A DNA stretch of 64,000 bases from Candidatus Nomurabacteria bacterium (GTDB taxonomy: Bacteria > Patescibacteriota > Patescibacteriia > UBA1558 > GWA2-36-10), in contig JACKFO010000002.1 of assembly GCA_020632415.1 (NCBI GenBank), positions 514,732-578,731 of the forward strand, given 5' to 3'. The position numbers and the translations under genes are program-made. The notes beneath the pieces are model-generated. The model saw nothing but the letters and a program-made list of their open reading frames with translations, was not told where the DNA came from and searched no databases. Below, one piece after another: positions 43,552 to 63,545 of this stretch; within the stretch, counting starts at the first letter, position 1; the number at the start of each line of letters is the position of its first letter.

Positions 43552-44439
43552 TCAATCCAACGGACTTTTTAAATTCTGCCAAAAATCCCGCGCCACGGCA
43601 GTATAAATTTCCGTAGTTTTGATACTCTGATGTCCAAGTAGCTTTTGGATATAACGAATGCTCACGCCACTTTCCAAAAGATGTGTGGCAAAACTATGTC
43701 GCAAACTATGGCAAGAAACATCAGTCTTGATCCCAACTTTTTGACAAGCATGTTCAAATATTTTCTGCGCTGTTCTGATCTGCAAATGTCCTCTGCTTTC
43801 TGTGCTGCTAAATAAATATTTTTGCTCTGCTGGCAAATCAGCTAAATATTTTTCTGCCAAATCTATACTTTTTTGACTAAGCAAAGTATAACGATCTTTG
43901 TTACCTTTAGCACCACGAACAAAAATATATTTATTTTCTAAATCTAAATCCGAAATTTTTAAAACTACCACTTCAGAAACTCGCAAACCAGAGCCATATA
44001 GTAAGCTTAAGATTAACTGATGTTTAAGATTTGCGGCGGCTGCTAAAATACTTTTAACTTGCTCTTTAGACAATACTTGCGGTAAATGCTTTTCGCGCTT
44101 CGGCCGAACCACATTAAAAAACAGCCGCCGTTTTAAAACTTGGCTGTAGTAAAATTTCAAAGCTGAGATCACACTGTTGAGAGAAGTGTTAGTATAATTT
44201 TGACCTTTTAAAACCAAAAGGTAATTTTTGATATCTTGCTGATCAACTTCGCGGGCAGATTTTTGCACAAAATCCAAAAATCTTTGATTATGACTAAGGT
44301 AAGACTTGATTGTCCGTCGACTAAACCCACGGATAATTAACTCTTGTGCCAGACTAGCTAAAGGATGTGATTTGGAAACTAACTGATTGTTTGTTGATAA
44401 TTTTTGGGGCTCTTCAGACCTTTCAAAATCGCTTTTCAT
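43552..44439 (-). CDS. Tyrosine site-specific recombinase (Xer-like length, IntI-like C-terminal motif)
   Basis: Catalytic R...K...HxxR...Y set: LLYGSGLRVSE, HSLRHSFATHLL, LLGHQSIKTTEIYTAV; C-terminus ends KSPLD as in integron integrases, but the IntI-specific additional domain between patches II and III is absent. Confidence 0.8.
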   Translation of the reverse strand: MKSDFERSEEPQKLSTNNQLVSKSHPLASLAQELIIRGFSRRTIKSYLSHNQRFLDFVQKSAREVDQQDIKNYLLVLKGQNYTNTSLNSVISALKFYYSQVLKRRLFFNVVRPKREKHLPQVLSKEQVKSILAAAANLKHQLILSLLYGSGLRVSEVVVLKISDLDLENKYIFVRGAKGNKDRYTLLSQKSIDLAEKYLADLPAEQKYLFSSTESRGHLQIRTAQKIFEHACQKVGIKTDVSCHSLRHSFATHLLESGVSIRYIQKLLGHQSIKTTEIYTAVARDFWQNLKSPLD

Positions 44440-44600
44440 AAGGCTTTGTGATTAATGTTTAAGTATTTACATCTTGGCTAAAAATAGCTAAACTGTCAAT
44501 ATATACGTAAATACCTTGTTAGGTGAAATTTTACGAAACAAAACAAATAAATATTTTAGATTACAAGTCCCTTTTAAAAAAGAGAAATAGAAATTAAGCT

Positions 44601-45587
44601 TTACTGTTCTTGTAAAGCTATTTTGTTTAGAATAGTGTTTTCTAGGTTGTAATTATTACCATGTTGTAATAAGCCTAAATAAGAAGGCAGATTTTTGTTA
44701 TTAACTTTTTTAAGCATTCTTTGTTTTGTTTTAGTTCTTAATACTCTATAATTTGGAAAATTAACATAACCTAAATAATCTACACCACTGGCTAAAGTGG
44801 TTAAAGATACTTTCTTTGGATGTAAGCTAAGTTGAAGTTTTTTGCCAAGAAAATTTTTAATTTGAGGAAGAAGTTTAAGTAAATCTTCCTTGCTTTGGGA
44901 AAGAAAAACAAAATCATCTGCGTAACGAATATAATACTTTTGTTTAAGTTTGTGCTTAACATATTGATCAAATTCATTCATGTAGATATTAATAAAGAGT
45001 TGAGAAGTGAGATTACCCAAAGGAAGTCCTTTGTTTGAAGAGGTTTCAAAGCTATCTATGACTTTACTTAAAAGCCAAAGAATGTTTTGATCTTTAATAT
45101 ATTGAGAAAGAATGTCTTTTAAAATGTTGTGGTCAATATTGGCAAAAAACTTCTGAATGTCACATTTGAGTACATAACAAGTTTTAGTGTTATTTTGACT
45201 TACTTTTAAAGAATAGCTTTTGAATTTATTAATTGCTTTATGTGTTCCTTTATTGTTTCTACAAGAATAGGAGTCTTGAGTGAAAGTATGATCAAAAAAA
45301 GGATATAGTTGTCTATATATTGCATGGTGCAATAATCTATCTTTAACTTGAGCTTTGTGAATGTTTCTGGGCTTAGGATCAGAGATATTAAATGCCTCAT
45401 ATCCTGAATGTTGGTAAGTAAAATTGGCAAGTGAGGTGTGAAGCTGTATAATGTTATCTATTAAGTGTAAAGAAAATAATAAGACATCTGCTTTATGTTT
45501 TTTACCTTGAATAAATTCAGTGTAAGCTGAAAGTAAGTTATCTAAAGAAATAATATCTTTATAAGTATGAATGAATTGCCTTTTCAT
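44601..45587 (-). CDS. Diversity-generating retroelement reverse transcriptase
   Basis: RT motifs including YIRYADDFVFL (YxDD) and LGNLTSQLFINIY, i.e. the DGR-specific (I/L)GxxxSQ in place of QGxxxSP; about 330 aa without an X/maturase domain. The ORF track extends to 45647, but the start is probably the Met of MKRQFIHTYKDIISLDNLL. Confidence 0.85.
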   Translation of the reverse strand: MKRQFIHTYKDIISLDNLLSAYTEFIQGKKHKADVLLFSLHLIDNIIQLHTSLANFTYQHSGYEAFNISDPKPRNIHKAQVKDRLLHHAIYRQLYPFFDHTFTQDSYSCRNNKGTHKAINKFKSYSLKVSQNNTKTCYVLKCDIQKFFANIDHNILKDILSQYIKDQNILWLLSKVIDSFETSSNKGLPLGNLTSQLFINIYMNEFDQYVKHKLKQKYYIRYADDFVFLSQSKEDLLKLLPQIKNFLGKKLQLSLHPKKVSLTTLASGVDYLGYVNFPNYRVLRTKTKQRMLKKVNNKNLPSYLGLLQHGNNYNLENTILNKIALQEQ

Positions 45588-45709
45588 AATGATATGCAAA
45601 AATCTGCCTTTAGGCCTGCCCCCCCAGAGGGATATACGACCTACCAATTTTAGATAAAGCCACTGCGGCTTACAAAATATGGCATAAGTATTTAATAGAT
45701 TTTCCGCGC

Positions 45710-45985
45710 TTGGATAGATATACTTTGGGCGAGAAAATAGATTTGCTTTTTTGTGATGTCATTGAATTATTATTAGAAGCAGTTCAAAGCCAAAAAGAGC
45801 TAAAATTAAAAATAGTGGATAAGGCCTGCGTCCGGCTGGATATGTTAAAATATTTTTTGCAAATTGCTTGGAATTTAAAAACAATGGATAATAAAAAATA
45901 TCTAATAATTTCCAATGCTTTAAATGAAGTGGGCAAAATGCTGGGCGGCTGGAAAAAACAGGTGCAAAATATTACTCTGAAATAA
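45710..45985 (+). CDS. avd: DGR accessory variability determinant (Avd, four-helix-bundle protein); the N-terminus probably extends upstream to about 45640 with a non-ATG start
   Basis: C-terminal ...LNEVGKMLGGWKK resembles the BPP-1 bAvd EVGRILGSWI region; the in-frame upstream extension (LDKATAAYKIW...) also aligns with the Avd N-terminus; opposite strand to the RT and target gene. Confidence 0.65.
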   Translation: MDRYTLGEKIDLLFCDVIELLLEAVQSQKELKLKIVDKACVRLDMLKYFLQIAWNLKTMDNKKYLIISNALNEVGKMLGGWKKQVQNITLK

Positions 45986-45996
45986 AAAAGAAACTG

Positions 45997-46126
45997 GCGA
46001 ACAGCCGCGAAGCGACAGTTGTCGATCCAGTCATTGTCGATCCAGTTGAGATTGAGCTTGCGCTTGCTGTCATTACTGTTGAGGTAGCCGACGTTACGGT
46101 TGCCATTCAGGTTCTGCCAGACGGAA
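45997..46126 (-). repeat. DGR template repeat (TR), 130 bp
   Basis: 130/130 alignable to the VR, with 23 mismatches, all at TR adenines on the minus (coding-sense) strand; TR in the target frame is rich in AAC/AAT codons. Confidence 0.9.
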
Positions 46127-46384
46127 AAGCCGTTTTGTACAAAATATCTTCTTTAGCACCACCTCTTGAATACTCTTGAGGTTGTATTTTATTTGAGATC
46201 TTTAAATCTACCAATATCTTGCACCAAGTTTCTTTTTTGTGAGAATTTTAAGGTAAGTACTCTAGAATAAAATAATTTATCCTACTCTATTCTCGCTTCT
46301 CCTTAAATTCAGAGTTCAACCGTTTCAAACCTTAGCCTGAAACTGTCTCGTTTACTATCCAAAAAATATTTTAACAAATTTTAA

Positions 46385-46440
46385 AGAAAAAGAAAAACTC
46401 CGTCTCTCACCTTCTTAGGGGATATTGAGACGGAGTGGGT
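46385..46440 (-). terminator. Hairpin plus T-tract downstream of the DGR target gene (terminator and possibly the DGR-associated stem-loop)
   Basis: CTCCGTCTC-loop-GAGACGGAG 9-bp stem; T-rich tract on the minus strand. Confidence 0.6.
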
Positions 46441-46506
46441 TGTTGACGCTGGCCAAGTGTCCAAGGGACAATCAAGTCCCGAGTGCACAAGTGACCAAGA
46501 TCAGGT

Positions 46507-47094
46507 TTACTTGCGAACAGCCGCGAAGCGACAGTAGCCGAGCCAGCCACTGCCGACCCAGCTGAGAAAGAGCCCGCGCCCGCTGACAAGACCGTTGAGG
46601 TAGCCGACGTAACGGTGGCCACTCAGGCTCTGCCAGACGGAACCCAGAGCGACGATCGGAAACTGACGCTGCAGCTCGGGGTATTCGATACCGAGAGCGA
46701 GCAGCTCCGACATCGTCGCCGGACGTAGGCCTTCCGCATCCAGAGCCTTGAGCACAGCATCCGTGCTCATGGACTTGTCGAAGTGCTTGAAGATGATCTC
46801 ACACTGATGCCGCTCGTCAGCCTGGAAGTTCCGATCATTGATATCGGAGTTGCTCCAATCGTAGTTTCCAAACCTCACGTTCTCGCTGATGTCACCAGTG
46901 ACGCTGATCTGGTAGATCTTGGCATTGTTGCCGACGATCAGGTTGGCCAGTTCCTTGCGAAGCGTGCGGTTGCTGATGATCTGACGCAGGTTGTCGTCGT
47001 TACCGCCCAACGAATTGACTTCGTCGGACAAGGCCTTGACGATTTCGAAACCGGTGCCGAGACCACTGACGAACTCACTCTTCTGGCGTGCCAT
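46507..47094 (-). CDS. DGR target protein with C-terminal variable region (likely CLec-fold ligand-binding domain)
   Basis: SD AAGGAG before the ATG (MARQKSEF...); the C-terminal 43 aa are encoded by the VR; GC content about 55% against a genome value of about 33%. Confidence 0.8.
   Translation of the reverse strand: MARQKSEFVSGLGTGFEIVKALSDEVNSLGGNDDNLRQIISNRTLRKELANLIVGNNAKIYQISVTGDISENVRFGNYDWSNSDINDRNFQADERHQCEIIFKHFDKSMSTDAVLKALDAEGLRPATMSELLALGIEYPELQRQFPIVALGSVWQSLSGHRYVGYLNGLVSGRGLFLSWVGSGWLGYCRFAAVRK
46512..46641 (-). repeat. DGR variable repeat (VR)
   Basis: See TR; the identical 3' segment (IMH-like GC-rich segment CTGTCGCTTCGCGGCTGTTCGC) is shared by TR and VR. Confidence 0.9.
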
Positions 47095-47433
47095 GATAGG
47101 CTCCTTCACAATTTAGCTCACCTCTTATCTTTGCCTCTTGCAAAGACACAAGGCCTGCTTGTTTAGAAACGGCTATTTCCATATAGCCGCAGCGGCCAAG
47201 TTAGAATGTTTTAATTCTAGCTTAAACGCTGAGGCTATATTTGCAAGTAAAATATCAATGAACTTAATAATAAATAAGTATATCATATATTAGCTATTCT
47301 GTCAAGCATTATAACAAAAACTGCCATATTTAGGCTAAAATTAGCTAAAATACTTATTTCTACCAAACATTCTTCTCTATTTCTCTTTTTTAAGGGACTT
47401 GTTTATTATATAGGTAATTTGTTTCGTAAAACT

Positions 47434-47637
47434 GTCACCCAACACCCGGTATGCGGTTCGCGAGAGACTACTAGAAAAATATACTTATTGCAAATAAGTA
47501 TATTTTCATTTAAAGTTAATAAGGTATATTTTTCTTCAGTCCTCGCTCTCGTAAATCCCTCGACTCCAACGCATGATTATAAGATTATATCATGCAGGAG
47601 TCTCGGGACTTCGCATACCGTGGACAGTTAGCTGAAA
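47434..47637 (+). repeat. Integron attC-like imperfect palindrome (long form, no ORF inside); first element of the cassette array
   Basis: Left arm CACCCAACACCCGGTATGCGGTTCGCGAGAG is complementary to right arm CTCGGGACTTCGCATACCGTGGACAGTTAGCTG; the terminal boxes ACCCAAC / GTTAGCT fit RYYYAAC / GTTRRRY. Confidence 0.6.
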
Positions 47638-47734
47638 TATTCCTTTTCTTTTAATGAATAAATAAGCTATTATTAAAAAACATTTTCAAATTTCTTTTTC
47701 TTTATTATAAAGGGGAACCTGCCTGTCGGCAGGA

Positions 47735-50700
47735 GTGGATGTTTCCTCCGCTACGCTTCGGAAACAATTTAATAATTTAAATACAATGAATCAATATTAC
47801 AGAGGCTCAGAGTGGCGCAAGTGGGATCTTCACATTCACACTCCAAAATCAATAATCCAACAATACAGCGGCGATACTGAGGCTGTTTGGGATATATTTA
47901 TTAAAAAACTTGCACAATTGCCACCGGAGTTAAAAGTAATAGCCGTTACTGACTATCTTTTTTGTGATGGGTATGAGTATCTACTTACGCGCAAGGACGA
48001 GATACCAAATATCAAATTGATCATTCCCAACATCGAATTCCGTCTCAATACGTTTAGCGGTACACCAAACAATACAAAGCGACACAATTTCCATGTACTC
48101 TTTGACCCGTCGGTTTTAATTCAAGATATCCGAGATCAACTGCTCAACTGTCTTTCAACCGGCTACAAAATCGAGGACGGCACCGAATGGTTACAAACAC
48201 CCACAGTTCGCTCACTTGAAGAATTAGGACGTCAGATAAAAGCCGCCGCTCCACCCGAGAATACTGTACATACCAAATCCGATCTGAAAGTCGGCTTTGA
48301 AAACATCACCTACAAACGTGAGGACATCGAAATATTACTTAATAAAAATTGTTTTAAGGGTCGTTTCGTAACTGCAGTCGGCTATTCCGAATGGGATCAA
48401 TCCAGATGGGACCAGTCAACCGCAGAAAAGCGTACACTGATAAATACCGCAAACTTTTCACTTACAAGCTTGAATGACCCAGCAAAAATCGAGGAAAACC
48501 GTAGAGATCTTACCGCCAACAAACTAAATAATATTGTGCTTCACTCTTCCGATTCTCATGACATTGATTGCGTGGGAGAGACAATGCTTTGGATAAAAGC
48601 CGATCCTACCTTTGCAGGCTTAAAACAGGTTTTAAATGAGCCAGAAGCACGTGTCTTTATTGGTGCGACACCTCCAAACTACAAACCAGAGCATAAGGTT
48701 ATTTCTCGTATTTCAATTCCATCATCAAACGGATGGTTTGCTGATGATTTCTCTATAGAATTGAATAGAGATCTTGTTACCGTTATTGGCGGACGTGGTT
48801 CTGGTAAGTCTGCCCTAGCAGAAGTAATCGCCTGTGGTGCTGGCAGTGAGGACGAAAGCGACGATGCATTCTTGAAGAAAGCTACAAAGCATCCCAACCC
48901 CATCAAAGGTGCGGAGATTTTTGTGGAGTGGGCTGATGGAAACACTACTAGCTTTAAGGTTGGCGAGCTTCCCGAAGATCAAGGACTCGTACGTTATCTC
49001 CCCCAAGGAGTTGTAGAAGAATTATGCTCTCACAAGAATAGTGAAAAGCTTCAGAAACAAATCGAGAATGTTATCTTCCAAGCTCTTGATGATACGGAAC
49101 GCATGGGGGCGTCTGATTTCGATGAGCTGCAAATACGTATCTTGAGCGGCTTCCAATATGAGAAGGAGCAAATTGTAAAAAAGGTCCGTGACATAAACCG
49201 AAAACTAAGCAGCCTATCAACTGTCCTCTCCGGTTTGCCGGATAAACAAAAAATTCTCGATGACAGCAAGAAAGAGCTAGAACGGTTGATTAAAAGCTTA
49301 CCAGAACTTCCTGCTGAGGACAAAAAAGGTCAGGAGGAACTTGCCGCACTTGCGGAAATAAAGAAGAAATTTGAAACGAAGATTATCGAGCTTCAAAAAC
49401 GTCTCAACAAGATATTTGAAGTAGAATCCAAAGTAAAAGTTTTCAAAACAAAGGTTAAGGAATTCGGAGAAGAAACGAGCGCACTATTGTCGGATCTTGG
49501 TATCACTGACACATCGGCTTTCGATGTAAATGTAGACGATATCAATATTAAGGCCGTGTTGGACGAGAAGAAAAACGAGATTACTAACGATCTCAGGATT
49601 CTCAAGGAAGGTACGAAATTGGATGTCGCTATTGTATTGGGTATGGAAACAAATCTTCCGTTTGATAACCTTCAGACACTTAACCAAGGTATTGAGGACA
49701 AGCAAAAAGAAACGCGCGCATTTGAAACCACAAAACTCAAGTACCAACAGCAAAAGAAAACCGCGCTTGCGCTCGAAAGCTCGATCCAGGCTCTTGAAAA
49801 TGAAATATCCAAAATCAGCACTGAATCTACTCCAGAAAAGGAACGACTGGAAAAAGAGCGCATAAACACGTACTGCTCATATTTCAAGTTACTAGGCGAA
49901 GAAAAAATACAAATGGAAGTATTATATAAACCGCTTCAAAAATCACTCTTAGCCGGAACAGACACCGATAAGAAACTTATGTTTGAGGCACAAATAAACT
50001 ATCGCTTGGAAGCACACAATAAAAATGGCCTCGACATCATTGACCGCACGCGCAAAGGAAATTTCCGCGAGCCTGGAAACCTCAAAACTGCGCTTACTGA
50101 ACTCTGGGATGAAACGGTAAGACATAACTTCGATAAAGATATTCTCGAAACAGAAATTAAAAAAATCATCGAAGCGTTTACGACATGTGATGGGGAAAGC
50201 GTCACAATTGAAAGTCAACTGCGCGATAATTACGGCATTGAGGATTTTTACAATTGGCTATTTGATCCGACCAATTTTGAAATTGTGTCTTCACTTAAAT
50301 TCGACGACACAAATCTCTACGTACTTTCACCTGGACAGAAAGGTATTATTTTACTCATGCTTTTCTTAGAGATCGATAAAGGAGATTATCGACCACTTAT
50401 CATCGACCAACCTGAAGAGAACTTGGATAACCTCTCAGTCTATAAAGACCTCATTAACTACTTCCGAGAACGCAAACAATACCGACAAATCATCATGGTT
50501 ACTCACAACCCGAACCTTGTCGTAAACACTGATGCGGAGCAGATTATCGTTGCCAGCTATAATGGCAAGCACATACCTCGTTTGACGTACAGCTCAGGAT
50601 CACTTGAGGATCAGGCAAAACAGATTCCAAATACATCGACTATGGAACTTGAAGATGGGATTATTGAGCAAGTTTGTAACATTCTTGAAGGAGGCGAACG

Positions 50701-50764
50701 TGCATTTGAAAAACGGAAGAAAAAATATCAAATATCTCAAAAAATGAAAAATCAAGAGTCATAA
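47735..50764 (+). CDS. PHP-domain phosphoesterase fused to an SbcC/Rad50-like coiled-coil ABC ATPase (about 1000 aa); candidate defence/conflict-system protein
   Basis: N-terminal PHP motifs WDLHIHTPKS, IAVTDY, HNFHVLFDP; Walker A VIGGRGSGKSAL; about 300-aa coiled coil; C-terminal signature LSPGQKG, Walker B LIIDQPEENLD, H-loop MVTHNPN. The start is either GTG 47735 (overlapping SD AGGAG) or ATG 47786. Confidence 0.75.
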   Translation: MDVSSATLRKQFNNLNTMNQYYRGSEWRKWDLHIHTPKSIIQQYSGDTEAVWDIFIKKLAQLPPELKVIAVTDYLFCDGYEYLLTRKDEIPNIKLIIPNIEFRLNTFSGTPNNTKRHNFHVLFDPSVLIQDIRDQLLNCLSTGYKIEDGTEWLQTPTVRSLEELGRQIKAAAPPENTVHTKSDLKVGFENITYKREDIEILLNKNCFKGRFVTAVGYSEWDQSRWDQSTAEKRTLINTANFSLTSLNDPAKIEENRRDLTANKLNNIVLHSSDSHDIDCVGETMLWIKADPTFAGLKQVLNEPEARVFIGATPPNYKPEHKVISRISIPSSNGWFADDFSIELNRDLVTVIGGRGSGKSALAEVIACGAGSEDESDDAFLKKATKHPNPIKGAEIFVEWADGNTTSFKVGELPEDQGLVRYLPQGVVEELCSHKNSEKLQKQIENVIFQALDDTERMGASDFDELQIRILSGFQYEKEQIVKKVRDINRKLSSLSTVLSGLPDKQKILDDSKKELERLIKSLPELPAEDKKGQEELAALAEIKKKFETKIIELQKRLNKIFEVESKVKVFKTKVKEFGEETSALLSDLGITDTSAFDVNVDDINIKAVLDEKKNEITNDLRILKEGTKLDVAIVLGMETNLPFDNLQTLNQGIEDKQKETRAFETTKLKYQQQKKTALALESSIQALENEISKISTESTPEKERLEKERINTYCSYFKLLGEEKIQMEVLYKPLQKSLLAGTDTDKKLMFEAQINYRLEAHNKNGLDIIDRTRKGNFREPGNLKTALTELWDETVRHNFDKDILETEIKKIIEAFTTCDGESVTIESQLRDNYGIEDFYNWLFDPTNFEIVSSLKFDDTNLYVLSPGQKGIILLMLFLEIDKGDYRPLIIDQPEENLDNLSVYKDLINYFRERKQYRQIIMVTHNPNLVVNTDAEQIIVASYNGKHIPRLTYSSGSLEDQAKQIPNTSTMELEDGIIEQVCNILEGGERAFEKRKKKYQISQKMKNQES

Positions 50765-50860
50765 ATTTTGGGCTCGGGCATTCACCCCTTTATCCCCTCT
50801 GCCCTTCGCCCAAAAATGAAAAAAAGAAATTCACTAAGAATAAATACTAAGAATTTAAGA

Positions 50861-50891
50861 AAAGGAATACATCAGCCAACAGCGGATGTCC
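50861..50891 (+). repeat. attC-like short element (left arm only): CAGCCAACAGCGGATGTCCGATAAGCAAG
   Basis: Its reverse complement is found split at both ends of the long element at 51264-51374. Confidence 0.55.
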
Positions 50892-50921
50892 GATAAGCAA
50901 GTTTAATTTTAATTAAAATAT

Positions 50922-51272
50922 ATGCAAGAAAAAACAAAAAAACATCTAGTGAGTTATTTAATAATCTACTTAATAGTATCTGGATTATTATTAGTATTAT
51001 TACGGGACATGTACTCTGCTTTGGTTAGTGGATTATCATTAGTATTATTATTCATAATACTACCTCACAGAATATATCTGCTATTTAAAAATCCAAAAGC
51101 AGAGAATAATATATCAGGAAAAAACATAGCCTTGATACTATTTGCATCTATACTATGTATAGCTGGTTTTTTCATGTACTTGCTAAATGAAAATCTATAT
51201 TGGCCAGGCAAAATATTATTCGTTATAGGATTAACATACATTGTAAGTGCTGTAAGAAATACTAAAAATTAA
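50922..51272 (+). CDS. Cassette ORF: small membrane protein (3 TM helices)
   Basis: 116 aa hydrophobic ORF bounded by attC-like elements. Confidence 0.4.
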   Translation: MQEKTKKHLVSYLIIYLIVSGLLLVLLRDMYSALVSGLSLVLLFIILPHRIYLLFKNPKAENNISGKNIALILFASILCIAGFFMYLLNENLYWPGKILFVIGLTYIVSAVRNTKN

Positions 51273-51374
51273 ACTTGCTTATCCAAATTCCACTTTCGCT
51301 TTTGCGGTTTGCTCCGCAAAATTATACCGCAACGCTCAAGTGAAACTTCGGACATCCGCGTAATGTTAGCTGAA
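51264..51374 (+). repeat. attC-like long element ending in CGGACATCCGCGTAATGTTAGCTGAAAT
   Basis: Equals the reverse complement of the 50861-50891 element with a 75-bp internal insertion. Confidence 0.55.
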
Positions 51375-51448
51375 ATAAATTTTTCCTTTTTACAATAAAA
51401 CAAACCAAAATAACAAAAATACTTATTTGATTTTTTTATCAATATTAT

Positions 51449-51925
51449 ATGGACTTCTCTCAAGTAGACAATCAGACTAAAACCGAATTTAGAGCAACGA
51501 GAATTTTTATTCGTAGTCAAAATTTAGACGATACCGAAAAAAATTTTAAAAAAGAAATCGATGATCTAAGTATAGATATAATATATATTCCAAAATCTTT
51601 AAAATTTCAAATTGTTTCAGTTGATGGCGGGCCAGATAAATTAATGTCCAAAGGAGAATATGAGTGGTCATTTTTATTAACAGATTTTTTTAGAATATAC
51701 ATTAAAGAACCAATACTAAAAAAGACTAAAAAATACGCCGGTCAACCAGGTCAAGACACAATACTTATAATTCACGCATTAAATATGCCTGCAACGGAAG
51801 AAATAATTACAAAAACAATTGAAGATAATAAAAATCATATTAATAAATTAGGTAATGATAGTGGATTTAATAAAATTTTTTTAATTTTTGATTCTAAAGA
51901 AAAAGTTTTTGATTTATTCAAATAA
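51449..51925 (+). CDS. Cassette ORF: hypothetical protein (158 aa)
   Basis: ORF between attC-like elements; no motif recognised. Confidence 0.4.
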   Translation: MDFSQVDNQTKTEFRATRIFIRSQNLDDTEKNFKKEIDDLSIDIIYIPKSLKFQIVSVDGGPDKLMSKGEYEWSFLLTDFFRIYIKEPILKKTKKYAGQPGQDTILIIHALNMPATEEIITKTIEDNKNHINKLGNDSGFNKIFLIFDSKEKVFDLFK

Positions 51926-51983
51926 AAAAATCAAATCATACTATTAAATAATAAAAACATTTAAAAATCTAAGAAAAAATTTA

Positions 51984-52006
51984 CATCACCCAACAGCGGA
52001 TGTGAG
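51984..52006 (+). repeat. attC-like short element CATCACCCAACAGCGGATGTGAG
   Basis: Consensus short form, repeated at least 8 times in the array. Confidence 0.55.
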
Positions 52007-52038
52007 GCTCCGCCTTTAAGAATAATATAAAATTAATT

Positions 52039-52608
52039 ATGGACTTATACCAAAAAACAGAACAATTTGTCATAGATTCCTTTACTAAAGCTGGAGATGA
52101 ACGTGGAATTAAACATTTCTTAAGAACTGTTTATTGGTTAGAGCAATTAAAGCCAAATGCTGATGAAGCATTAAAAATTGCTGCAGTTGCTCATGACATT
52201 GAAAGAGCTTTTAGAAAACAAGATTATGCTAATGTCTTTAATTCTGAAAAAGGTTTTGCTAGTGATGAACATTTGAGTTATCATCAAACTGAAGGAGCAA
52301 AAATAATCTCTGAGTTTTTGAAAAAAGAAGGTGCGGATAAAAAAATTGTAGAGCGTGTTAAAATGTTAGTAGAAAAACACGAGATTGGTGGCAATGAAGA
52401 TCAAAATCTAGTAAAAGATGCTGATAGTGTAAGCTTTTTTGAAAATAACGCTAATCACTTTATAGAAGTGAAAGTTAAACAGACAAGCAAAGAGAAAGTA
52501 AAAGATAAATTTGATTGGATGTTTAATAGAATTACTTCTGACAAAGCTAAAGAGCTAGCAAAACCTTGGTATGAAGAAGGATTGCATAAATTGTCCTTAC
52601 TGGATTAA
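52039..52608 (+). CDS. Cassette ORF: HD-domain phosphohydrolase
   Basis: H ... AHDIER ... D metal-binding pattern. Confidence 0.55.
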   Translation: MDLYQKTEQFVIDSFTKAGDERGIKHFLRTVYWLEQLKPNADEALKIAAVAHDIERAFRKQDYANVFNSEKGFASDEHLSYHQTEGAKIISEFLKKEGADKKIVERVKMLVEKHEIGGNEDQNLVKDADSVSFFENNANHFIEVKVKQTSKEKVKDKFDWMFNRITSDKAKELAKPWYEEGLHKLSLLD

Positions 52609-52629
52609 TTTTATATTATTCTTAAGCTT

Positions 52630-52725
52630 CGCCCAAATCACTCGTTCGTTTACGTGATGCGCTTCGCGCTATTATATCACGACACTCACTCGTGACTTCT
52701 CACATCCGCGATATGTTAGGTGAAA
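52630..52725 (+). repeat. attC-like long element (TCACCCAAATCACTCG ... CTCACATCCGCGATATGTTAGGTGAAA)
   Basis: Consensus long form; near-identical copies at 53913, 57196, 60218 and 62541. Confidence 0.6.
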
Positions 52726-52769
52726 CCGAGAATTTATAAAATAAATATTTCTATTACAAAAAAAATAAA

Positions 52770-53315
52770 ATGCGATACGTTATTGTCTGTAATTTAAATG
52801 GTGATGTTGTCAAATATCACAAACAATTAGTTAATGAAATAGCTAAAAATTTTAATATTGCTAAGCCAAAAAAACAAAATCTACAACCACATTTTACACT
52901 TAAGTATGGATTTGAAACTAATAATATAAAAACAATTGAAAAGGCAATAAAAGATTTCTGCGCTAGAAACCATAAAGCTTCTGTTAAAATTAATGGTTTT
53001 GGCAAATTTAGAAAAGATGTAATATTTTGTAAAGTTATTCTTTCAAAAAAAGCTTACGCTATATTCACTGAACTTTTAAATGACTTGAAAAAAATCCCCA
53101 AATTAACATGGAATAAGAATGATGGAAAAAGGCTAAAATTCCATGCTACCATAGCTGCAGATTGTGAAGACAAATATACTGAAATTCAAAAATATTTAAA
53201 AGGAAAAGAAAAAAACTTTACTACCTATTTTGACAACATCACCATACTACAACAACAAAGAATAGTTGATGGAATAAGTATTTGGAAAACATTTAAAAAA
53301 TTTCAAATTAAATAG
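52770..53315 (+). CDS. Cassette ORF: 2H-phosphoesterase (LigT-like) family protein
   Basis: Two HxT/Sx motifs: PHFTLKY and FHATIAA. Confidence 0.55.
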   Translation: MRYVIVCNLNGDVVKYHKQLVNEIAKNFNIAKPKKQNLQPHFTLKYGFETNNIKTIEKAIKDFCARNHKASVKINGFGKFRKDVIFCKVILSKKAYAIFTELLNDLKKIPKLTWNKNDGKRLKFHATIAADCEDKYTEIQKYLKGKEKNFTTYFDNITILQQQRIVDGISIWKTFKKFQIK

Positions 53316-53326
53316 CAAATTCTCGA

Positions 53327-53373
53327 CATCACCCAACAGCGGATGTGAAGTTCGTAAAATAAAGAAAATCACC
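53327..53373 (+). repeat. attC-like short element with extended arm
   Basis: CATCACCCAACAGCGGATGTGAAGTTCGTAAAATAAAGAAAATCACC is the reverse complement of the flank and end of the 53894-54009 element. Confidence 0.55.
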
Positions 53374-53375
53374 TT

Positions 53376-53897
53376 ATGAAATATACTATTCCAACAAAAC
53401 AATGGTTGAATCCTAAAGTGGAAATAAAAAACTCCTCTATTGCAAGTAGAGGAATATTTGCTAAAGAGTTAATTAAAAAAGATGAGGTAGTTGTTATTTG
53501 GGGTGGAGATAATTATACAGATTATCAAGGGATGCTCAAAGCTAAAAAAGAAGGTAAATTGGTAATGCATTGGGATGATGATCTATATAGTTTTGAGAAT
53601 AGACAAAGTGATGACACTTATTTTATAAACCATTCTTGTAATTCTAATCTTTGGTTAAAAGATCAATTTACTTTAATTGCTAAAAGAGATATAAATATTG
53701 GAGAGGAAATAACCATTGATTATGCTTTATTTGAAGGAGATGAAGATTATATAGCTCAATGGGAATGTAATTGTAAAGAAGTGGATTGTAGAAAAAAGAT
53801 TACTGGAAATGATTGGAAAATAAAAGCTGTACAAGAAAGATATAAAGATCATTTCTTGCCTTATATTAATAGAAAGATTAATAATTTAAACAAGTGA
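53376..53897 (+). CDS. Cassette ORF: SET-domain protein (putative protein-lysine methyltransferase)
   Basis: NHSCNSNLW and EEITIDY SET motifs plus a Cys-rich post-SET region CNCKEVDCRKK. Confidence 0.6.
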   Translation: MKYTIPTKQWLNPKVEIKNSSIASRGIFAKELIKKDEVVVIWGGDNYTDYQGMLKAKKEGKLVMHWDDDLYSFENRQSDDTYFINHSCNSNLWLKDQFTLIAKRDINIGEEITIDYALFEGDEDYIAQWECNCKEVDCRKKITGNDWKIKAVQERYKDHFLPYINRKINNLNK

Positions 53898-54009
53898 TTT
53901 TCTTTATTTCACTCACCCAAATCACTCGTTCGTTTACGTGATGCGCTTCGCGCTATTATATCACGACACTCACTCGTGACTTCTCACATCCGCGATATGT
54001 TAGGTGAAA
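53894..54009 (+). repeat. attC-like long element
   Basis: Identical to 52630-52725 from CCCAAAT onward. Confidence 0.6.
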
Positions 54010-54053
54010 CCGAGAATTTATAAAATAAATATTTCTATTACAAAAAAAATAAA

Positions 54054-54599
54054 ATGCGATACGTTATTGTCTGTAATTTAAATGGTGATGTTGTCAAATA
54101 TCACAAACAATTAGTTAATGAAATAGCTAAAAATTTTAATATTGCTAAGCCAAAAAAACAAAATCTACAACCACATTTTACACTTAAGTATGGATTTGAA
54201 ACTAATAATATAAAAACAATTGAAAAGGCAATAAAAGATTTCTGCGCTAGAAACCATAAAGCTTCTGTTAAAATTAATGGTTTTGGCAAATTTAGAAAAG
54301 ATGTAATATTTTGTAAAGTTATTCTTTCAAAAAAAGCTTACGCTATATTCACTGAACTTTTAAATGACTTGAAAAAAATCCCCAAATTAACATGGAATAA
54401 GAATGATGGAAAAAGGCTAAAATTCCATGCTACCATAGCTGCAGATTGTGAAGACAAATATACTGAAATTCAAAAATATTTAAAAGGAAAAGAAAAAAAC
54501 TTTACTACCTATTTTGACAACATCACCATACTACAACAACAAAGAATAGTTGATGGAATAAGTATTTGGAAAACATTTAAAAAATTTCAAATTAAATAG
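54054..54599 (+). CDS. Cassette ORF: 2H-phosphoesterase, exact duplicate of 52770-53315
   Basis: 181/181 aa identical, with identical upstream element and downstream left arm. Confidence 0.55.
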   Translation: MRYVIVCNLNGDVVKYHKQLVNEIAKNFNIAKPKKQNLQPHFTLKYGFETNNIKTIEKAIKDFCARNHKASVKINGFGKFRKDVIFCKVILSKKAYAIFTELLNDLKKIPKLTWNKNDGKRLKFHATIAADCEDKYTEIQKYLKGKEKNFTTYFDNITILQQQRIVDGISIWKTFKKFQIK

Positions 54600-54610
54600 C
54601 AAATTCTCGA

Positions 54611-54633
54611 CATCACCCAACAGCGGATGTGAG
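54611..54633 (+). repeat. attC-like short element
   Basis: CATCACCCAACAGCGGATGTGAG. Confidence 0.55.
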
Positions 54634-54704
54634 AAAAAAAGAGAAATAAAAAATTTGAAAAATAAAACCCTCTCGCCACAACAAGTGCAACGAGAGGGAA
54701 AATG

Positions 54705-55007
54705 TCAGTCTTCGATTTCCAGGTTTCCTCTACGGCAACTCAAATCATAATACCCGGAAAATTTAATCCGACAATCACGATCTTCATCCCCGGTGAAATA
54801 TGCGTCTTGAGATGCAAGAGTAATCAAAAACTGAGCACGTTTCTTGTCCATGGACTCAGCCGAGATTACGAAAAATTCGCAAGAACGAACAACGGTTTCT
54901 GAAGTGGTTCTCACGGTAAATCTGACCGTCTTACCCTCTTCAAAGAGAGCTAAGGCGAAATCCCATTTTCCGGGCCCATTAGTGATGACAAACTGCTTGG
55001 AAGACAT
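54705..55007 (-). CDS. Cassette ORF (inverted): hypothetical 100-aa protein, GC-rich
   Basis: ORF with its own terminator hairpin (CCCTCTCG/CGAGAGGG plus T-tract at 54664-54697). Confidence 0.4.
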   Translation of the reverse strand: MSSKQFVITNGPGKWDFALALFEEGKTVRFTVRTTSETVVRSCEFFVISAESMDKKRAQFLITLASQDAYFTGDEDRDCRIKFSGYYDLSCRRGNLEIED

Positions 55008-55159
55008 AACGACTTCCTCCTTTTGAAATGAACTGTGAATTTTAAGGCTTCACTTTGAACCTGTTCATCTTACGATGCACCAAGCTTAACAAAGCCTGGA
55101 ATTACTGAGAATTTAACATAATACTACGTAATTAACTTTTAGTCAAGTCACTAAGTTAA

Positions 55160-55262
55160 TTTTTTATTTCTCTTTTTCTCCAAATTGCCACCTCGTTACG
55201 GTAGTTGTATAATTATACTACCTTCACTCGGCGTCAACTTCTCACATCCGCGATATGTTAGA
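55160..55262 (+). repeat. attC-like long element variant carrying a consensus sigma70 promoter
   Basis: TTGCCA (55185-55190), 17 bp, TATAAT (55208-55213); ends CTCACATCCGCGATATGTTAGACG; about 95% identical to 63440-63545. Confidence 0.55.
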
Positions 55263-55398
55263 CGCCATCGTATTTTTCTCTTATAATCTTTTATTAAATT
55301 AAGAGATTATTTTTTATTTTTAAAGTAAAAGAAAAAGGACCACCCGGTAAGGGGCAACCCTTGATGTGAAGTGGAAGATGGAGCTTCCAAAATCTCAA

Positions 55399-55800
55399 CT
55401 ATCTGGACAGGACAGCTGCTCCAATAGCACGAGCTGCTTCCTGAGCATCTTTCTCTGTCCATCCAGACTGTTTCAAATCAGCATTGATCCGTTGCACATT
55501 GACTCTATCTGGGTGTGTAGCACACTCCTTGCAAATCATAACTCCCCTAGAAACTGAGACGTGCCCAGAAAAGACTGTGACGTCACAGTCTTGCGTTCTC
55601 AAACTCTGACGAATGGCAGTATCCTGGCCGAAGTACACAGTGGCACTCTCCTTCCAATTCCACCTGTCTCCGCAGTTAGGGCAGCCGCCGAAATGATGAA
55701 GATGACCGATGAAATTCTTCCAGACACTCGTCTTGGGGACGAAGTAACATCCGGAGAATACAAGAGCCAAGGTAATGAAAAGTGCGGTGTAGCTAAACAT
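55399..55800 (-). CDS. Cassette ORF (inverted): membrane-anchored Cys-rich protein, GC-rich
   Basis: Start chosen at MFSYTALFITLALVF with a GGAGAC SD; N-terminal TM helix; CPNCGDRW, CKEC. Confidence 0.4.
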   Translation of the reverse strand: MFSYTALFITLALVFSGCYFVPKTSVWKNFIGHLHHFGGCPNCGDRWNWKESATVYFGQDTAIRQSLRTQDCDVTVFSGHVSVSRGVMICKECATHPDRVNVQRINADLKQSGWTEKDAQEAARAIGAAVLSR

Positions 55801-55920
55801 GGTTGTCTCCAAAATCTGATTGTCGTTTAGGTCTGATTTAATATATAAATATAGCATATATTTCAAATTATGTCAAGTACCTAAAAATACTCCTGTAAAT
55901 AGAGAAAAATGCGACAAGCG

Positions 55921-56070
55921 TCCAACACCCGGTATGCAGTTTCCTCGCCTCCGCTAAAGCTACGGCGAAGTTCACCCAAATCGTGTCTTCCCTTATGCGG
56001 TTAGCTTCGCTATAATTATACCGCAGTCGGAAAGACACGACTTCGCATACCGTGGACAGTTAGGTGAAAT
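55921..56070 (+). repeat. attC-like full element without internal ORF
   Basis: Arms CAACACCCGGTATGCAG / TCGCATACCGTGGACAGTTAGGTG; nested CGTGTCTTCC/GGAAGACACG stem; internal TATAAT. Confidence 0.55.
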
Positions 56071-56788: not shown

Positions 56789-56803
56789 AAAAAATCTGCA
56801 TAA

Positions 56804-56826
56804 CATCACCCAACAGCGAATGTGAG
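56804..56826 (+). repeat. attC-like short element
   Basis: CATCACCCAACAGCGAATGTGAG. Confidence 0.5.
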
Positions 56827-56862
56827 GTTACGAGAAAATAACTAATAATCTTTATACTATAT

Positions 56863-57183
56863 ATGAATCTAGAAGAATTATTACAATTTATTAACAACGA
56901 AGATCAAAGATTGATCCAATTTAAGAATGGTAATAATGAAAAAGAAAGGATACTTTCAAGAACAGTAAAAATGACAGAAGAGTTAGGAGAATTATGTAAT
57001 GAAGTATTATCTTTTATTGGTGATCAAAGAAAAGAAAAACTAGAAAGAACAGATAAAGATAACTTACCAAATGAATTTGCTGACGTAATTATCACTACTC
57101 TACTTCTTGCTAAAACTATGAATGTAGATATAGTAAAAGCTTTAGAAGATAAAATTGAGAAAATAAAGAAGAGAAATTATTAG
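56863..57183 (+). CDS. Cassette ORF: MazG-like nucleoside triphosphate pyrophosphohydrolase
   Basis: EELGELCNEVL (EExGE motif), small all-alpha protein. Confidence 0.5.
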   Translation: MNLEELLQFINNEDQRLIQFKNGNNEKERILSRTVKMTEELGELCNEVLSFIGDQRKEKLERTDKDNLPNEFADVIITTLLLAKTMNVDIVKALEDKIEKIKKRNY

Positions 57184-57195
57184 TTATTTTCTCTT

Positions 57196-57292
57196 CACCC
57201 AAATCACTCGTTCGTTTACGTGATGCGCTTCGCGCTATTATATCACGACACTCACTCGTGACTTCTCGCATCCGCAATATGTTAGGTGAAAT
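57196..57292 (+). repeat. attC-like long element
   Basis: CACCCAAATCACTCG ... GTTAGGTGAAAT. Confidence 0.6.
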
Positions 57293-58338: not shown

Positions 58339-58359
58339 AAAATTTCTAAAATTACATCG

Positions 58360-58389
58360 CACAACACCCGGTATGCGGTTCGCGAGAAC
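58360..58389 (+). repeat. attC-like short element, second sequence family (CACAACACCCGGTATGCGGTTCGCGAGAAC)
   Basis: Matches the left arm of the 47434 element. Confidence 0.55.
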
Positions 58390-58408
58390 TAAAGAAATAT
58401 AACAAACT

Positions 58409-58924
58409 ATGTTAGAAAATAATTACGATAAAGAATTAGAAAGAGCCATCCAGTTTCTTGTGTTTGCAATTACTGAATCTGGACATAACCCAAAACCAGT
58501 AATCTTACATAGTATTAAGGTAGCTTTATATTTACAAAATAAACAATATTCTAAAGATATTGCTATCGCCTCTTGTTTACATGACTTATTGGAAGATACA
58601 AAAATAAGTGAAGAAGATATAAAAAATGAATTTGGAGATAAAATATTAAATTTAGTTAAAGCAAATACTTTTGATACTTCAATTTCAGATAAAACTGAAC
58701 AATACAAAGAAATGTTTACAAGAACTGTCAAGGCTGGTAAAGAAGCAATGATTATTAAAGCTGCTGATATTCTAGAAAATAGTTATCATTGGAATAAAGC
58801 AATCAATGAAGAACAAGTAAATTGGTTAATTAATAAGGCAAAGTACTTCTTAGAACTCACAGCTATTGAACTTAAAGATGAAATTGTTTACAAAGATTTG
58901 CAAACACAAGTAAATAACTTTTAA
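58409..58924 (+). CDS. Cassette ORF: HD-domain protein
   Basis: H ... LHDLLEDT ... D pattern. Confidence 0.5.
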   Translation: MLENNYDKELERAIQFLVFAITESGHNPKPVILHSIKVALYLQNKQYSKDIAIASCLHDLLEDTKISEEDIKNEFGDKILNLVKANTFDTSISDKTEQYKEMFTRTVKAGKEAMIIKAADILENSYHWNKAINEEQVNWLINKAKYFLELTAIELKDEIVYKDLQTQVNNF

Positions 58925-58938
58925 TCAAATAATTTCTT

Positions 58939-59040
58939 TAGTCCTCGCTCACTGCAAATCCCTCACTCGTCACGGTGGTTATAAATTATACCACCTAAAC
59001 TCGTTCGGGACTTCGCATACCGTGGACAGTTAGGTGAAAT
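58939..59040 (+). repeat. attC-like long element, second family (ends TTCGCATACCGTGGACAGTTAGGTGAAAT)
   Basis: Right-arm partner of 58360-58389; internal TATAAATTATACC. Confidence 0.55.
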
Positions 59041-59555: not shown

Positions 59556-59582
59556 AAAAAGAAAAGGAATACATCACCCAAC

Positions 59583-59604
59583 AGCGGATGTGAGATTCGT
59601 AAAA
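59583..59604 (+). repeat. attC-like short element
   Basis: CATCACCCAACAGCGGATGTGAG. Confidence 0.55.
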
Positions 59605-59624
59605 TAAATAGTAAATAACTTAAC

Positions 59625-60191
59625 ATGACAAAATATATTTTGCACGGTGGCGCAACTAGTAAAGATTCGCCAGATAATAAAAAATTTTTCAATGAAGCAA
59701 TGAGCAGCTTACCAGATCAGGCCGTTATTCTTTTTGTGTATTTTGCCCGAGAGAAGGAACTGTGGCCAAAAATGTTAGAACAGGATAAATTACATTTTTC
59801 TCCTACCGATAAGCAAAAAGTTTTTAACTTCACTATCGCCGACGACAAAATATCTAACCTTATAGAACAAATTAAAAAAGCCGACTTAATATACTTAAGA
59901 GGTGGCCAAACAGATCGATTAAAAGACACTTTGAGTAAAGTTAAAAATCTAGGTGGTTTGTTAAAAGACAAGGTTGTAGTAGGTTCTTCGGCTGGAGCAT
60001 ATGTTTTGTCTAGATATTATTATACCAATAGCAAAGACATTATATTAAATGGTCTTGATATATTACCAATAAAAACTTTTTGTCACTATTCCGAAGAAAA
60101 AGCCGATAAACTAGATAAGCTAAAACAATACGAGGAGAATTTGAAAGTTTATGCAATACCAGAAGAAAAATTTTTTATTATAGAAGTGTAA
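59625..60191 (+). CDS. Cassette ORF: peptidase S51 (peptidase E / cyanophycinase-like) family protein
   Basis: YLRGGQT and VVGSSAGAYVLS (nucleophile Ser) motifs. Confidence 0.55.
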   Translation: MTKYILHGGATSKDSPDNKKFFNEAMSSLPDQAVILFVYFAREKELWPKMLEQDKLHFSPTDKQKVFNFTIADDKISNLIEQIKKADLIYLRGGQTDRLKDTLSKVKNLGGLLKDKVVVGSSAGAYVLSRYYYTNSKDIILNGLDILPIKTFCHYSEEKADKLDKLKQYEENLKVYAIPEEKFFIIEV

Positions 60192-60217
60192 GGTTAGTTA
60201 TTTGCTATTTATTTTAC

Positions 60218-60315
60218 TCACCCAAATCACTCGTCCGTTTACGTGATGCGCTTCGCGCTATTATATCACGACACTCACTCGTGACTTCTCACATCCGCGA
60301 TATGTTAGGTGAAAT
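60218..60315 (+). repeat. attC-like long element
   Basis: TCACCCAAATCACTCG ... GTTAGGTGAAAT. Confidence 0.6.
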
Positions 60316-61004: not shown

Positions 61005-61165
61005 TACCCAACACCGCGTATGAGGTTCAACTCCTCCACTAACGTGTCGTCGTTTCACCAAAATCGTGTCTTCCCTTATGCAGTTGATCTCTCGCCCAAC
61101 TCGGGATATAATTATACTGCAACGGTCAGACACGACTTCTCATACGCTGGACAGTTAGGTGAAAT
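61005..61165 (+). repeat. attC-like full element without internal ORF
   Basis: Arms CCCAACACCGCGTATGAGG / CTCATACGCTGGACAGTTAGGTG; internal TATAATTATAC. Confidence 0.55.
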
Positions 61166-62007: not shown

Positions 62008-62027
62008 CTCCCAACAGCGGATGTGAG
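62008..62027 (+). repeat. attC-like short element
   Basis: CTCCCAACAGCGGATGTGAG. Confidence 0.5.
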
Positions 62028-62053
62028 GTTCGTAAGTTAGGTAATTATTTTTT

Positions 62054-62527
62054 ATGAAAAAAAATTGTTTATTCTGTAATAAAAAGGAAGATTGGATTTT
62101 TGAAAATAGATATTTTTATTCTGTATTTGACATTCATCCAGTATCTCCGGGTCATGCCTTGGCAATTCCTAAAAGACATATTGTCTCTCTATTAGATTTA
62201 ACAGATAATGAGTGGAATGAGCTAAAAAAATCTATTACTGAAACTATCAACATTATTGGATTAACAAATAAGAGGGAATTGTATTTAGAAATGAAGGAAA
62301 AAGAAATTACAAAAAAATCTCCTCTGTTCTGTAAAAAGATGTTAATACATTTGGGTATTAACAAAAAAACAAAAGATTTTAATATTGGAGTAAATGATGG
62401 TAGATTAGCAGGAAGAACAATAGATCACCTACATATTCAAATAATTCCTAGATATAAAGATGATGTCAAAAATCCAATCGGTGGTATTAGAACAATTATT
62501 CCTGGACTAGGAAATTACAAAAAATAA
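62054..62527 (+). CDS. Cassette ORF: HIT-family (histidine triad) nucleotide hydrolase
   Basis: CLFCNKK N-terminus and DHLHIQIIPR histidine triad. Confidence 0.65.
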   Translation: MKKNCLFCNKKEDWIFENRYFYSVFDIHPVSPGHALAIPKRHIVSLLDLTDNEWNELKKSITETINIIGLTNKRELYLEMKEKEITKKSPLFCKKMLIHLGINKKTKDFNIGVNDGRLAGRTIDHLHIQIIPRYKDDVKNPIGGIRTIIPGLGNYKK

Positions 62528-62540
62528 TTTCCTAACTTAC

Positions 62541-62643
62541 TCACCCAAATCACTCGTTCGTTTACGTGGTTGTGAGCTAACGCTCACATTTTACCACGAC
62601 ACTCACTCGTGACTTCTCACATCCGCGATATGTTAGATGAAAT
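62541..62643 (+). repeat. attC-like long element (variant centre, ends GTTAGATGAAAT)
   Basis: TCACCCAAATCACTCGTTCG ... CTCACATCCGCGATATGTTAGATG. Confidence 0.55.
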
Positions 62644-63221: not shown

Positions 63222-63242
63222 CGTCCAACAGCGGATGTGAGA
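63222..63242 (+). repeat. attC-like short element
   Basis: CGTCCAACAGCGGATGTGAG. Confidence 0.5.
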
Positions 63243-63439
63243 GAAAAAGAGAAATAAAAAAAAGCCCTCTTGATGCTATCGCTGAGAGCAGAGAACAGAT
63301 GTCTTTTTTACGGATCGGCTTATGGTGCCTAGGGTTTCCCATTTACAATGCCTGGGCAATACCCCATCTGTTATGCAAATATACTAGCACATATTAAATA
63401 TTTTGTCAATAACTAAAATGGGTTAAAATTAACCTATTT

Positions 63440-63545
63440 TTTATTTCTCTTTTTCTCCAAATTGCCACCTCGTTTCGGTAGTTGTATAATTATACTACCT
63501 TCACTCGGTGACAACTTCTCACATCCGCAATATGTTAGGTGAAAT
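63440..63545 (+). repeat. attC-like long element with sigma70-like promoter (TTGCCA-17-TATAAT at 63462-63490)
   Basis: Near-identical to 55160-55262. Confidence 0.55.

Follow-up and report, generated by a model that had tools for sequence, protein, structure and literature searches.

This locus raises the question of whether a tyrosine recombinase of Xer length, lacking the additional domain by which integron integrases are defined, can serve a cassette array in the way that an integron integrase does. The recombinase gene lies in a 64-kb stretch of DNA (the window, meaning the whole of the stretch analyzed) within an 842-kb contig of Candidatus Nomurabacteria, and is divergent from an array of attC-like sites, with only a diversity-generating retroelement (DGR) between the two. 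A sequence-only reading of the window had described this intI-like orientation and named the recombinase as the best candidate for the enzyme mobilizing the attC-like cassettes, possibly as a non-canonical integron integrase. The orientation is as described, and the proposed role gains support from comparative evidence, namely the linkage of gene and array in related genomes and polymorphisms at a GTT core. We conclude that this is probably the site-specific recombinase of a chromosomal integron-like gene-capture platform in one clade of Patescibacteria. The gene and the region upstream of it are organized as follows.

43552..44439, minus strand: tyrosine recombinase gene, 295 aa, Xer-length, without the IntI additional domain, with a C-terminal SPLD
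44440..44517, no strand: conserved intergenic left part of the attI-like site, 78 nt, aligned over 14 loci, holding GGCTAAAAATAGCT (44476-44489) and TGTCAATA
44466..44494, plus strand, into the array: promoter-like site TTTACA-17-TAAACT, by consensus match a predicted analogue of the integron cassette promoter Pc
44518..44529, plus strand: attI-like core GTTAGGTGAAAT, with the crossover probably after G44518

Comparison is with 13 homologous Patescibacteria loci drawn from JGI, ENA, NCBI, and Logan assemblies, with recombinases sharing 59 to 83% amino acid (aa) identity with that of the window. All 13 related loci preserve the 80 nt before the start codon, with a GTT or GAT core at nt 77 to 79, and in the 14 aligned loci the conservation ends just after the core G. 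In the window, the core GTTAGGTG is 79 nt upstream of the recombinase start codon, beyond the outward promoter-like site, and fits GTTRRRY; 13 of the 14 aligned loci, all except L089, have the TTTACW-N17-TAnnnT promoter pattern. A near-palindrome, GGCTAAAAATAGCT, is positioned between the -35 and -10 hexamers, and its counterpart in L090 is the perfect palindrome AGCCAATATTGGCT. This element may serve as an operator or bind the recombinase as an accessory site.

Arrays of alternating R'' and R' sites, with differing L'' and L' sequences, are present in the window and in all nine distinct loci for which 2 kb or more of upstream sequence is available, bearing out the association of recombinase and array suggested from the window. 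The housekeeping neighbors vary by locus and include ComM/HU/RNase Y, ribonucleotide reductase, FtsH, TsaE/HigB, and YchF; in the window, the genes to the left of the recombinase code for a ComM-like ATPase, HU, YmdB, RNase Y, and ClpP. The array genes at the loci examined are small, and most point away from the recombinase; they include acetyltransferase, glyoxalase, restriction-modification, and ATPase genes.

Two pairs of contigs with 100% identical recombinase genes diverge 3 to 6 bases into the core. The recombinase genes of L091 and L092 match at 870 of 870 positions, and the upstream sequences are identical for 81 nt, through the GTT, and then diverge; the first cassette of L092 is found again in L091 (109/109 identical), directly after a 1064-bp cassette ending in ...AACGTT. 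Because the first L092 cassette follows this extra cassette in L091, L091 corresponds to L092 plus one cassette inserted at the attI-like site. The second pair, L086 and L087, also has identical recombinase genes, shares 84 nt upstream, and is unrelated beyond. The cassette at 56039-56815 has 78% identity over 780 nt to one at a different array position in L088, the recombinase of which is only 62% identical to that of the window, and we count this match as probable cassette mobility.

The position of the exchange can be read from the cassette ends. In 38 curated cassettes, the bases following the G of R' at the cassette start are complementary to the R'' of the same cassette and to the bases that precede this R''. 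Core position 2 shows complementarity in 100% of cognate and 81% of non-cognate pairs, and GAT cassette starts are always paired with ATC ends. For core positions 5 to 7, complementarity is 0.92, 0.71, and 0.89 in cognate pairs and 0.67, 0.34, and 0.48 in non-cognate pairs; over the next 16 nt, 11.0 bases are complementary in cognate pairs compared with 5.8, a value reached by 0 of 2000 permutations. In integrons, such complementarity is the classical signature of crossover between G and TT, and the cassette sequences are best read in that way. These final complementarity tests, and those of covariation below, use curated site lists; a loose automatic search for R''/R' pairs is dominated by AT-rich chance matches, and a stricter version still returns false sites, which weaken the signal (3.19 vs 2.84).

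In the window, the core recurs 12 times downstream, from 47627 to 63534 and always on the plus strand, as GTTAGNTG(AAAT) at 11 sites and GTTAGACG at 55257, and these R' cores alternate along the array with CAYCCAAC (RYYYAAC) partners; the recombinase is the only one of the tyrosine type in the window. Each site is built as R'' (CAnCnAAC), 1 to 3 nt, L'', a variable branched part, L', 5 to 6 nt, and R' (GTTAGnnG). The sites are as follows.

47436..47634, plus strand: attC-like site type B, 199 nt, empty, with R'' CACCCAAC, L'' CCGGTATGCG, L' CGCATACCG, and R' GTTAGCTG
50873..51372, plus strand: attC-like site, type A variant (GTCCG/CGGAC covariation), with a 116-aa open reading frame (ORF) in the first hairpin
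51987..52722, plus strand: attC-like site type A, HD/DUF4202 gene inside
53330..54006, plus strand: attC-like site type A, SET-domain gene inside
54614..55264, plus strand: attC-like site type A, R' is GTTAGACG
55919..56066, plus strand: attC-like site type B, 148 nt, empty, three-way junction fold
56807..57288, plus strand: attC-like site type A, MazG-like gene inside
58358..59036, plus strand: attC-like site type B, HD_4 gene inside
59575..60311, plus strand: attC-like site type A, peptidase S51 gene inside
61005..61161, plus strand: attC-like site, 157 nt, empty
62008..62639, plus strand: attC-like site type A, HIT gene inside
63226..63541, plus strand: attC-like site type A, 316 nt; the array runs on to the window end

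The pairing of L'' with L' is maintained by covariation. Across 37 sites, the L''/L' helix is 89% paired, with compensatory changes at 9 of 11 pairs; when all 19 pairs are scored, 84% of cells pair, compared with 26 to 41% in slid controls, and the covariation is matched by 0 of 500 shuffles. Variable R-box positions within one site pair poorly, as expected because the R' bases belong to the next cassette. The spacers between R'' and L'' and between L' and R' differ by a constant asymmetry of 3 to 4 nt, which sets two site classes apart in a fixed orientation in all loci. At the level of sequence comparison, gene, attI-like site, and array are linked, the crossover position and the pairing of the sites are established, and cassettes are gained or lost at the attI-like site.

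Four of the 12 window sites (148 to 316 nt) contain no convincing gene, and the three of these that were folded each form a three-way junction (z of -2.7 to -6.9); empty sites of 82 to 224 nt fold as branched hairpins over the same z range. In the other eight (480 to 740 nt from R'' to R'), the first internal hairpin, between L'' and L', encloses an entire gene, and six of the eight enclosed genes have Pfam matches (HD/DUF4202, SET, MazG, HD_4, peptidase S51, and HIT). To our knowledge, no described integron has a counterpart to a whole gene between L'' and L'. Each enclosed gene is bordered by its own 20- to 30-nt inverted repeat, and the same arrangement is found in L081 and L084. Intervals of 480 to 740 nt might seem to speak against attC-like sites, and one duplex site in alternating orientation, either pdif-like or a shufflon, is a conceivable alternative; it is rejected because the spacer asymmetry is constant, the array is polar from the attI-like site, and the polymorphisms are insertions.

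The DGR is also part of the array. The sequence-only reading was right that it alone stands between the recombinase and the attC-like sites, and the suggestion that it is a later insertion does not hold. It is complete and is placed between the attI-like core and the first attC-like site; the 5' end that follows GTTAGGTGAAAT is TTTACGAAACAAA, the exact complement of the bases before its R''. Because of this position and these complementary cassette-type ends, the DGR is cassette 1 rather than an interruption between integrase and array. Homologous loci retain the recombinase and the attI-like site without a DGR. The components are as follows.

44519..47634, plus strand: cassette 1, a complete DGR, ending in the attC-like site 47436-47634
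44601-45647, minus strand: reverse transcriptase (RT)
45710-45985, plus strand: Avd
45993-46126: template repeat (TR)
46509-46642: variable repeat (VR)
46507-47109, minus strand: DGR target gene, with the VR at its 3' end

The GC content around the DGR target gene is 0.49, compared with approximately 0.31 in the flanking kilobases.

Several other cassettes have features of note. A LigT-like (2'-5' RNA ligase family) cassette is duplicated at 52629-53352 and 53913-54636, the first 300 nt being 100% identical, and the copies are bounded by a CACCCAAAT motif within the upstream attC-like site and by the L'' end, which hints at a second exchange point inside the sites. The cassette at 47627-50880 contains a gene for a 1009-aa SMC/AAA-type ATPase; its ends (approximately 140 nt at the 5' side, including a hairpin, CCTGCCTGTCGGCAGG, and 120 nt at the 3' side) recur with 92 to 96% identity in cassettes of L081 (2.6 kb) and L105 (7.3 kb), and its interior has no DNA match to either, which makes a difference in cargo probable. 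On the minus strand, at 61251-61871 and 63625-63984, are two related cassette ORFs in reverse orientation; the second codes for an Ala/Ile-rich, repetitive, and probably membrane protein, with GC-rich GCGGCGATT-type tandem repeats at 63771-63971. In related loci, the arrays of four contigs begin with a 155-nt mini-cassette that lacks an ORF and has an 82-nt attC-like site, with copies at nt 79-241, 4972-5134, and 6746-6908 of the L096 array and nt 79-241 and 7780-7942 of the L105 array. L095 and L105 differ by deletion of one attC-like hairpin, for which slippage or an assembly artifact is possible, and this difference is not used as evidence.

The recombinase ORF reads from ATG to stop, ends in ...ARDFWQNLKSPLD, and matches the Pfam families Phage_integrase (6e-44) and, in its N-terminal domain, Phage_int_SAM_4. 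The RKHRHY catalytic set claimed from the sequence is complete (R153, K181 in the KGNKDR hairpin, H244, R247, H270, and Y279) and invariant in a 20-sequence family alignment, as is S292-P293-L294 of the tail. The IntI additional domain (the I2 helix) is absent, again as claimed. VchIntIA (2a3v) aligns in two HMMER blocks (query 28-190 and 214-293, corresponding to IntI 7-172 and 237-316), between which there are 64 residues in the IntI and 23 in the recombinase. The spacing from KGxKxR to LRHSFA is approximately 69 residues, compared with 109 to 110 in the 13 IntI-type proteins with both motifs located and 67 to 74 in the short relatives measured, and in an AlphaFold model (mean pLDDT of 81) residues 201-220 form a loop only, with no helix.

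Two motifs that had been taken as IntI-like are less specific than supposed. The SPLD tail is present, and its HMMER alignment with IntI4 runs through ..SP, whereas that with XerA ends at residues 282-284, but tails of this type occur in dozens of short non-IntI recombinases among the matches listed (from Bacteroidota, Alphaproteobacteria, Planctomycetota, DPANN archaea, and others); XerC/D-type sequences among the matches listed lack it. Outside Patescibacteria, the survey of tails and motif spacing covers L001 to L080, distant relatives with 30 to 47% identity among the matches listed, and SPLD-tailed examples without I2 include Bacteroidota proteins with long N-terminal extensions, Alphaproteobacteria proteins of approximately 300 aa, and proteins of DPANN archaea. 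A quick repeat search found no comparable array beside four distant SPLD-tailed relatives, L001, L002, L008, and L027 (Woesearchaeota, Undinarchaeales, Spirochaetota, and Clostridia). The LLYGSGLRVSE box is indeed close to IntI, and is as near to XerA (LLLYGAGLRVSE) and XerD (VLYATGLRVSE).

The best NCBIfam model for the recombinase is NF040815 (recomb_XerA_Arch; 253.3 bits against a cut-off of 220), which NCBI names 'site-specific tyrosine recombinase/integron integrase'. Scores are below the cut-offs of the integron integrase model TIGR02249 (197.6 against 265, matching in two stretches), PRK15417/NF011946 (121.3 against 435), the XerD model (202.8 against 329.6), and the XerC model (194.4 against 335). 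Among proteins of solved structure, P. abyssi and T. acidophilum XerA are nearest in sequence, followed by VchIntIA, and the best structural matches of the model are VchIntIA (E of 2e-18) and XerA (7e-18), which are equally close by fold. Patescibacteria have thousands of homologues of 288 to 300 aa, and the family is near-ubiquitous among them. We constructed a neighbor-joining (NJ) tree, a distance tree only, from 85 sequences and 276 well-occupied columns, leaving out those of the extra domain. In 100/100 bootstraps the proteins of IntI type (17, assigned by tree position) are monophyletic, as are the recombinase and its relatives, and the two clades are joined in 0/100. The SPLD-tailed proteins, IntI included, split from XerC/D and XerA in 71/100 bootstraps, and the recombinase clade is apart from the P. 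abyssi and T. acidophilum XerA proteins (71/100). Because the IntI clade is never joined and the scores are under the IntI and XerC/D cut-offs, the recombinase is neither an IntI family member nor XerC/D, and the placement inside XerC/XerD that would have spoken against the earlier proposal is borne out by neither the models nor the tree. It belongs to a wider group of I2-less, SPLD-tailed IntI relatives, between archaeal XerA and IntI.

As the likely catalyst of cassette movement, the recombinase would exchange a single strand at G|TT. The partners would be the attI-like site and the attC-like site borne by a circular cassette, or else two attC-like sites, and such exchanges would insert and excise cassettes as in integrons. 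The site of the circular cassette would form a long hairpin, composed of a 9- to 16-bp cassette-specific stem, an AA/CA mismatch, the 8-bp R box, an asymmetric loop, the L stem, and a variable part. The substrate is probably single-stranded and folded, and the Holliday junction would be resolved by replication. Folded substrates are favored over a duplex Xer-type reaction because of the covarying stems and the 3- to 4-nt spacer asymmetry, and a classical two-strand exchange seems improbable because the overlaps beside the crossover differ between partner sites, with no shared 6- to 8-bp overlap. CTX phage provides a precedent for an I2-less enzyme acting on a folded hairpin, as its folded single-stranded hairpin is integrated via XerC, which is without the I2 domain, by one strand exchange (Escudero et al. 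2020, PMC7790495). A broader proposal is tentative, although quite plausible: that integron-type capture runs on a recombinase that never had or has lost I2, that it is widespread in this Patescibacteria clade, that its long-stem sites can carry genes, and that its cargo includes a DGR and candidate defense genes.

The recombinase could instead be a housekeeping, XerA-type single Xer, such that the conserved upstream site is dif and the array consists of Xer-exploiting elements with parasitic capture. We consider this unlikely, even though the NF040815 score, XerA as the closest solved sequence, an Xer-length protein without the I2 helix, the near-ubiquity of the family in Patescibacteria, and the finding of no second tyrosine recombinase within the 64-kb window all fit it. 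Size and domain layout are like those of XerA and of the single-recombinase systems XerS/difSL and XerH/difH, in which the recombination site similarly adjoins the recombinase gene. The array also recalls the pdif modules of Acinetobacter plasmids, gene modules with module-specific inverted ends that are bracketed by XerC/D sites in alternating orientation; these are one 28-bp duplex site in two orientations, whereas R'' and R' in the window are not, as the two classes differ by a fixed spacer asymmetry and pair via covarying stems, and the array is polar from the attI-like site. The use of a folded single-stranded hairpin by XerC in CTX phage, one of the integrative mobile elements exploiting Xer (IMEX), likewise suits an Xer enzyme (PMC7790495), but what follows the window site is an ordered series of structured attC-like sites, not one or two integrated elements. 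A dif-like dyad, with two conserved binding arms around a 6- to 8-bp spacer, is not found in the 14 aligned loci, the SPLD tail aligns to IntI and not XerA in alignments with proteins of solved structure, the clade is separate from the two archaeal XerA proteins in the tree, and the platform is beside different core genes in different genomes. In seven loci there is no positive-to-negative GC-skew switch at the site, the skew being weakly negative on the housekeeping side and approximately 0 in the array, which is weak evidence. An Xer/dif role is possible as an additional or original role, compatible with that of a capture recombinase, and were it the true one the recombinase would still be the enzyme that builds the array.

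Membership in IntI proper would account for the SPLD tail, the Phage_int_SAM_4 domain, a gene divergent beside an attI-like site and array, and VchIntIA as top structural match, but it is hardly credible, being refuted on three defining features: the integron integrase model scores, the absent additional domain, and the failure of the query clade to join the IntI clade in any bootstrap. It is also very improbable that the recombinase is the integrase of a discrete mobile element (a prophage, integrative and conjugative element, or genomic island) or belongs to the adjacent DGR; tyrosine recombinases often mark island borders and the DGR is close by, but there is no tRNA in 36-64 kb of the window, no Rfam match in 40-64 kb, and there are no phage genes, the DGR has cassette ends of its own, and loci without it keep the recombinase and attI-like site. 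A shufflon-like DNA invertase, flipping segments between inverted sites, has a similarly slight chance of being correct: R'' and R' are mutually inverted and bracket gene-sized segments, but the polymorphisms seen are insertions or replacements at the attI-like site and not inversions, the segments are unrelated genes rather than alternative 3' ends of one gene, and the site classes hold their orientation and asymmetric spacing in all loci.

The integron-like capture platform that we prefer most resembles integrons, especially sedentary chromosomal ones, with a divergent integrase gene, an outward promoter-like site, an attI-like site with a GTTRRRY-type core, crossover at G|TT, first cassette bases complementary to the R'' of the same cassette, insertion at the attI-like site, R''/L''/L'/R' boxes in which structure, not sequence, is conserved, cassettes mostly of one small gene each, and a chromosomal array of at least 12 cassettes. 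It is unlike them in its Patescibacteria host, a conserved 2x2 mismatch (AA/CA), and an integrase outside the IntI clade.

Further differences weigh against our interpretation. The I2 helix that the recombinase lacks is, by published accounts, required for IntI to be active and to recognize folded attC sites (Messier & Roy 2001, cited in PMC9668308; PMC7790495). Stems extend 13 to 20 bp past the R box, and an asymmetric internal loop (spacers of 1 to 3 and 5 to 6 nt) replaces the usual extrahelical bases; 8 of the 12 sites enclose whole genes. The XerA model is above its cut-off, the family is widespread in Patescibacteria, and the recombinase may be the only Xer of the cell. Finally, the recombinase is assigned the catalysis through linkage only, the tree is by NJ only, and metagenome contigs make up most of the loci compared.

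In the housekeeping part of the window, a 2548-aa ORF is present at 7227-14873 on the minus strand, and no dnaA or other origin marker was found near a GC-skew change at 31-32 kb.

Papers on integron evolution and archaeal integrons regard the additional domain as both the defining feature and a necessity, and in the field the gain of I2 is seen as the innovation by which folded single-stranded attC sites could be recombined (PMC7790495; PMC9668308, which cites Messier & Roy 2001). This domain is required by detection tools, so systems such as this one would at best be classed as integrase-less arrays. In the full-text literature searched, the coverage of which excludes subscription journals, no account was found of an I2-less integrase accompanying integron-like arrays in Patescibacteria. 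A platform with integron-type junctions and an I2-less enzyme would provide a direct test of the need for I2 in this chemistry. It would also extend cassette capture to the Candidate Phyla Radiation, with tiny genomes and few known routes of gene gain, and would show that a DGR is able to move as a cassette. Should the lineage have diverged before the gain of I2, it would be a living 'proto-integron', and folded-site recombination at G|TT would be older than the domain thought to enable it.

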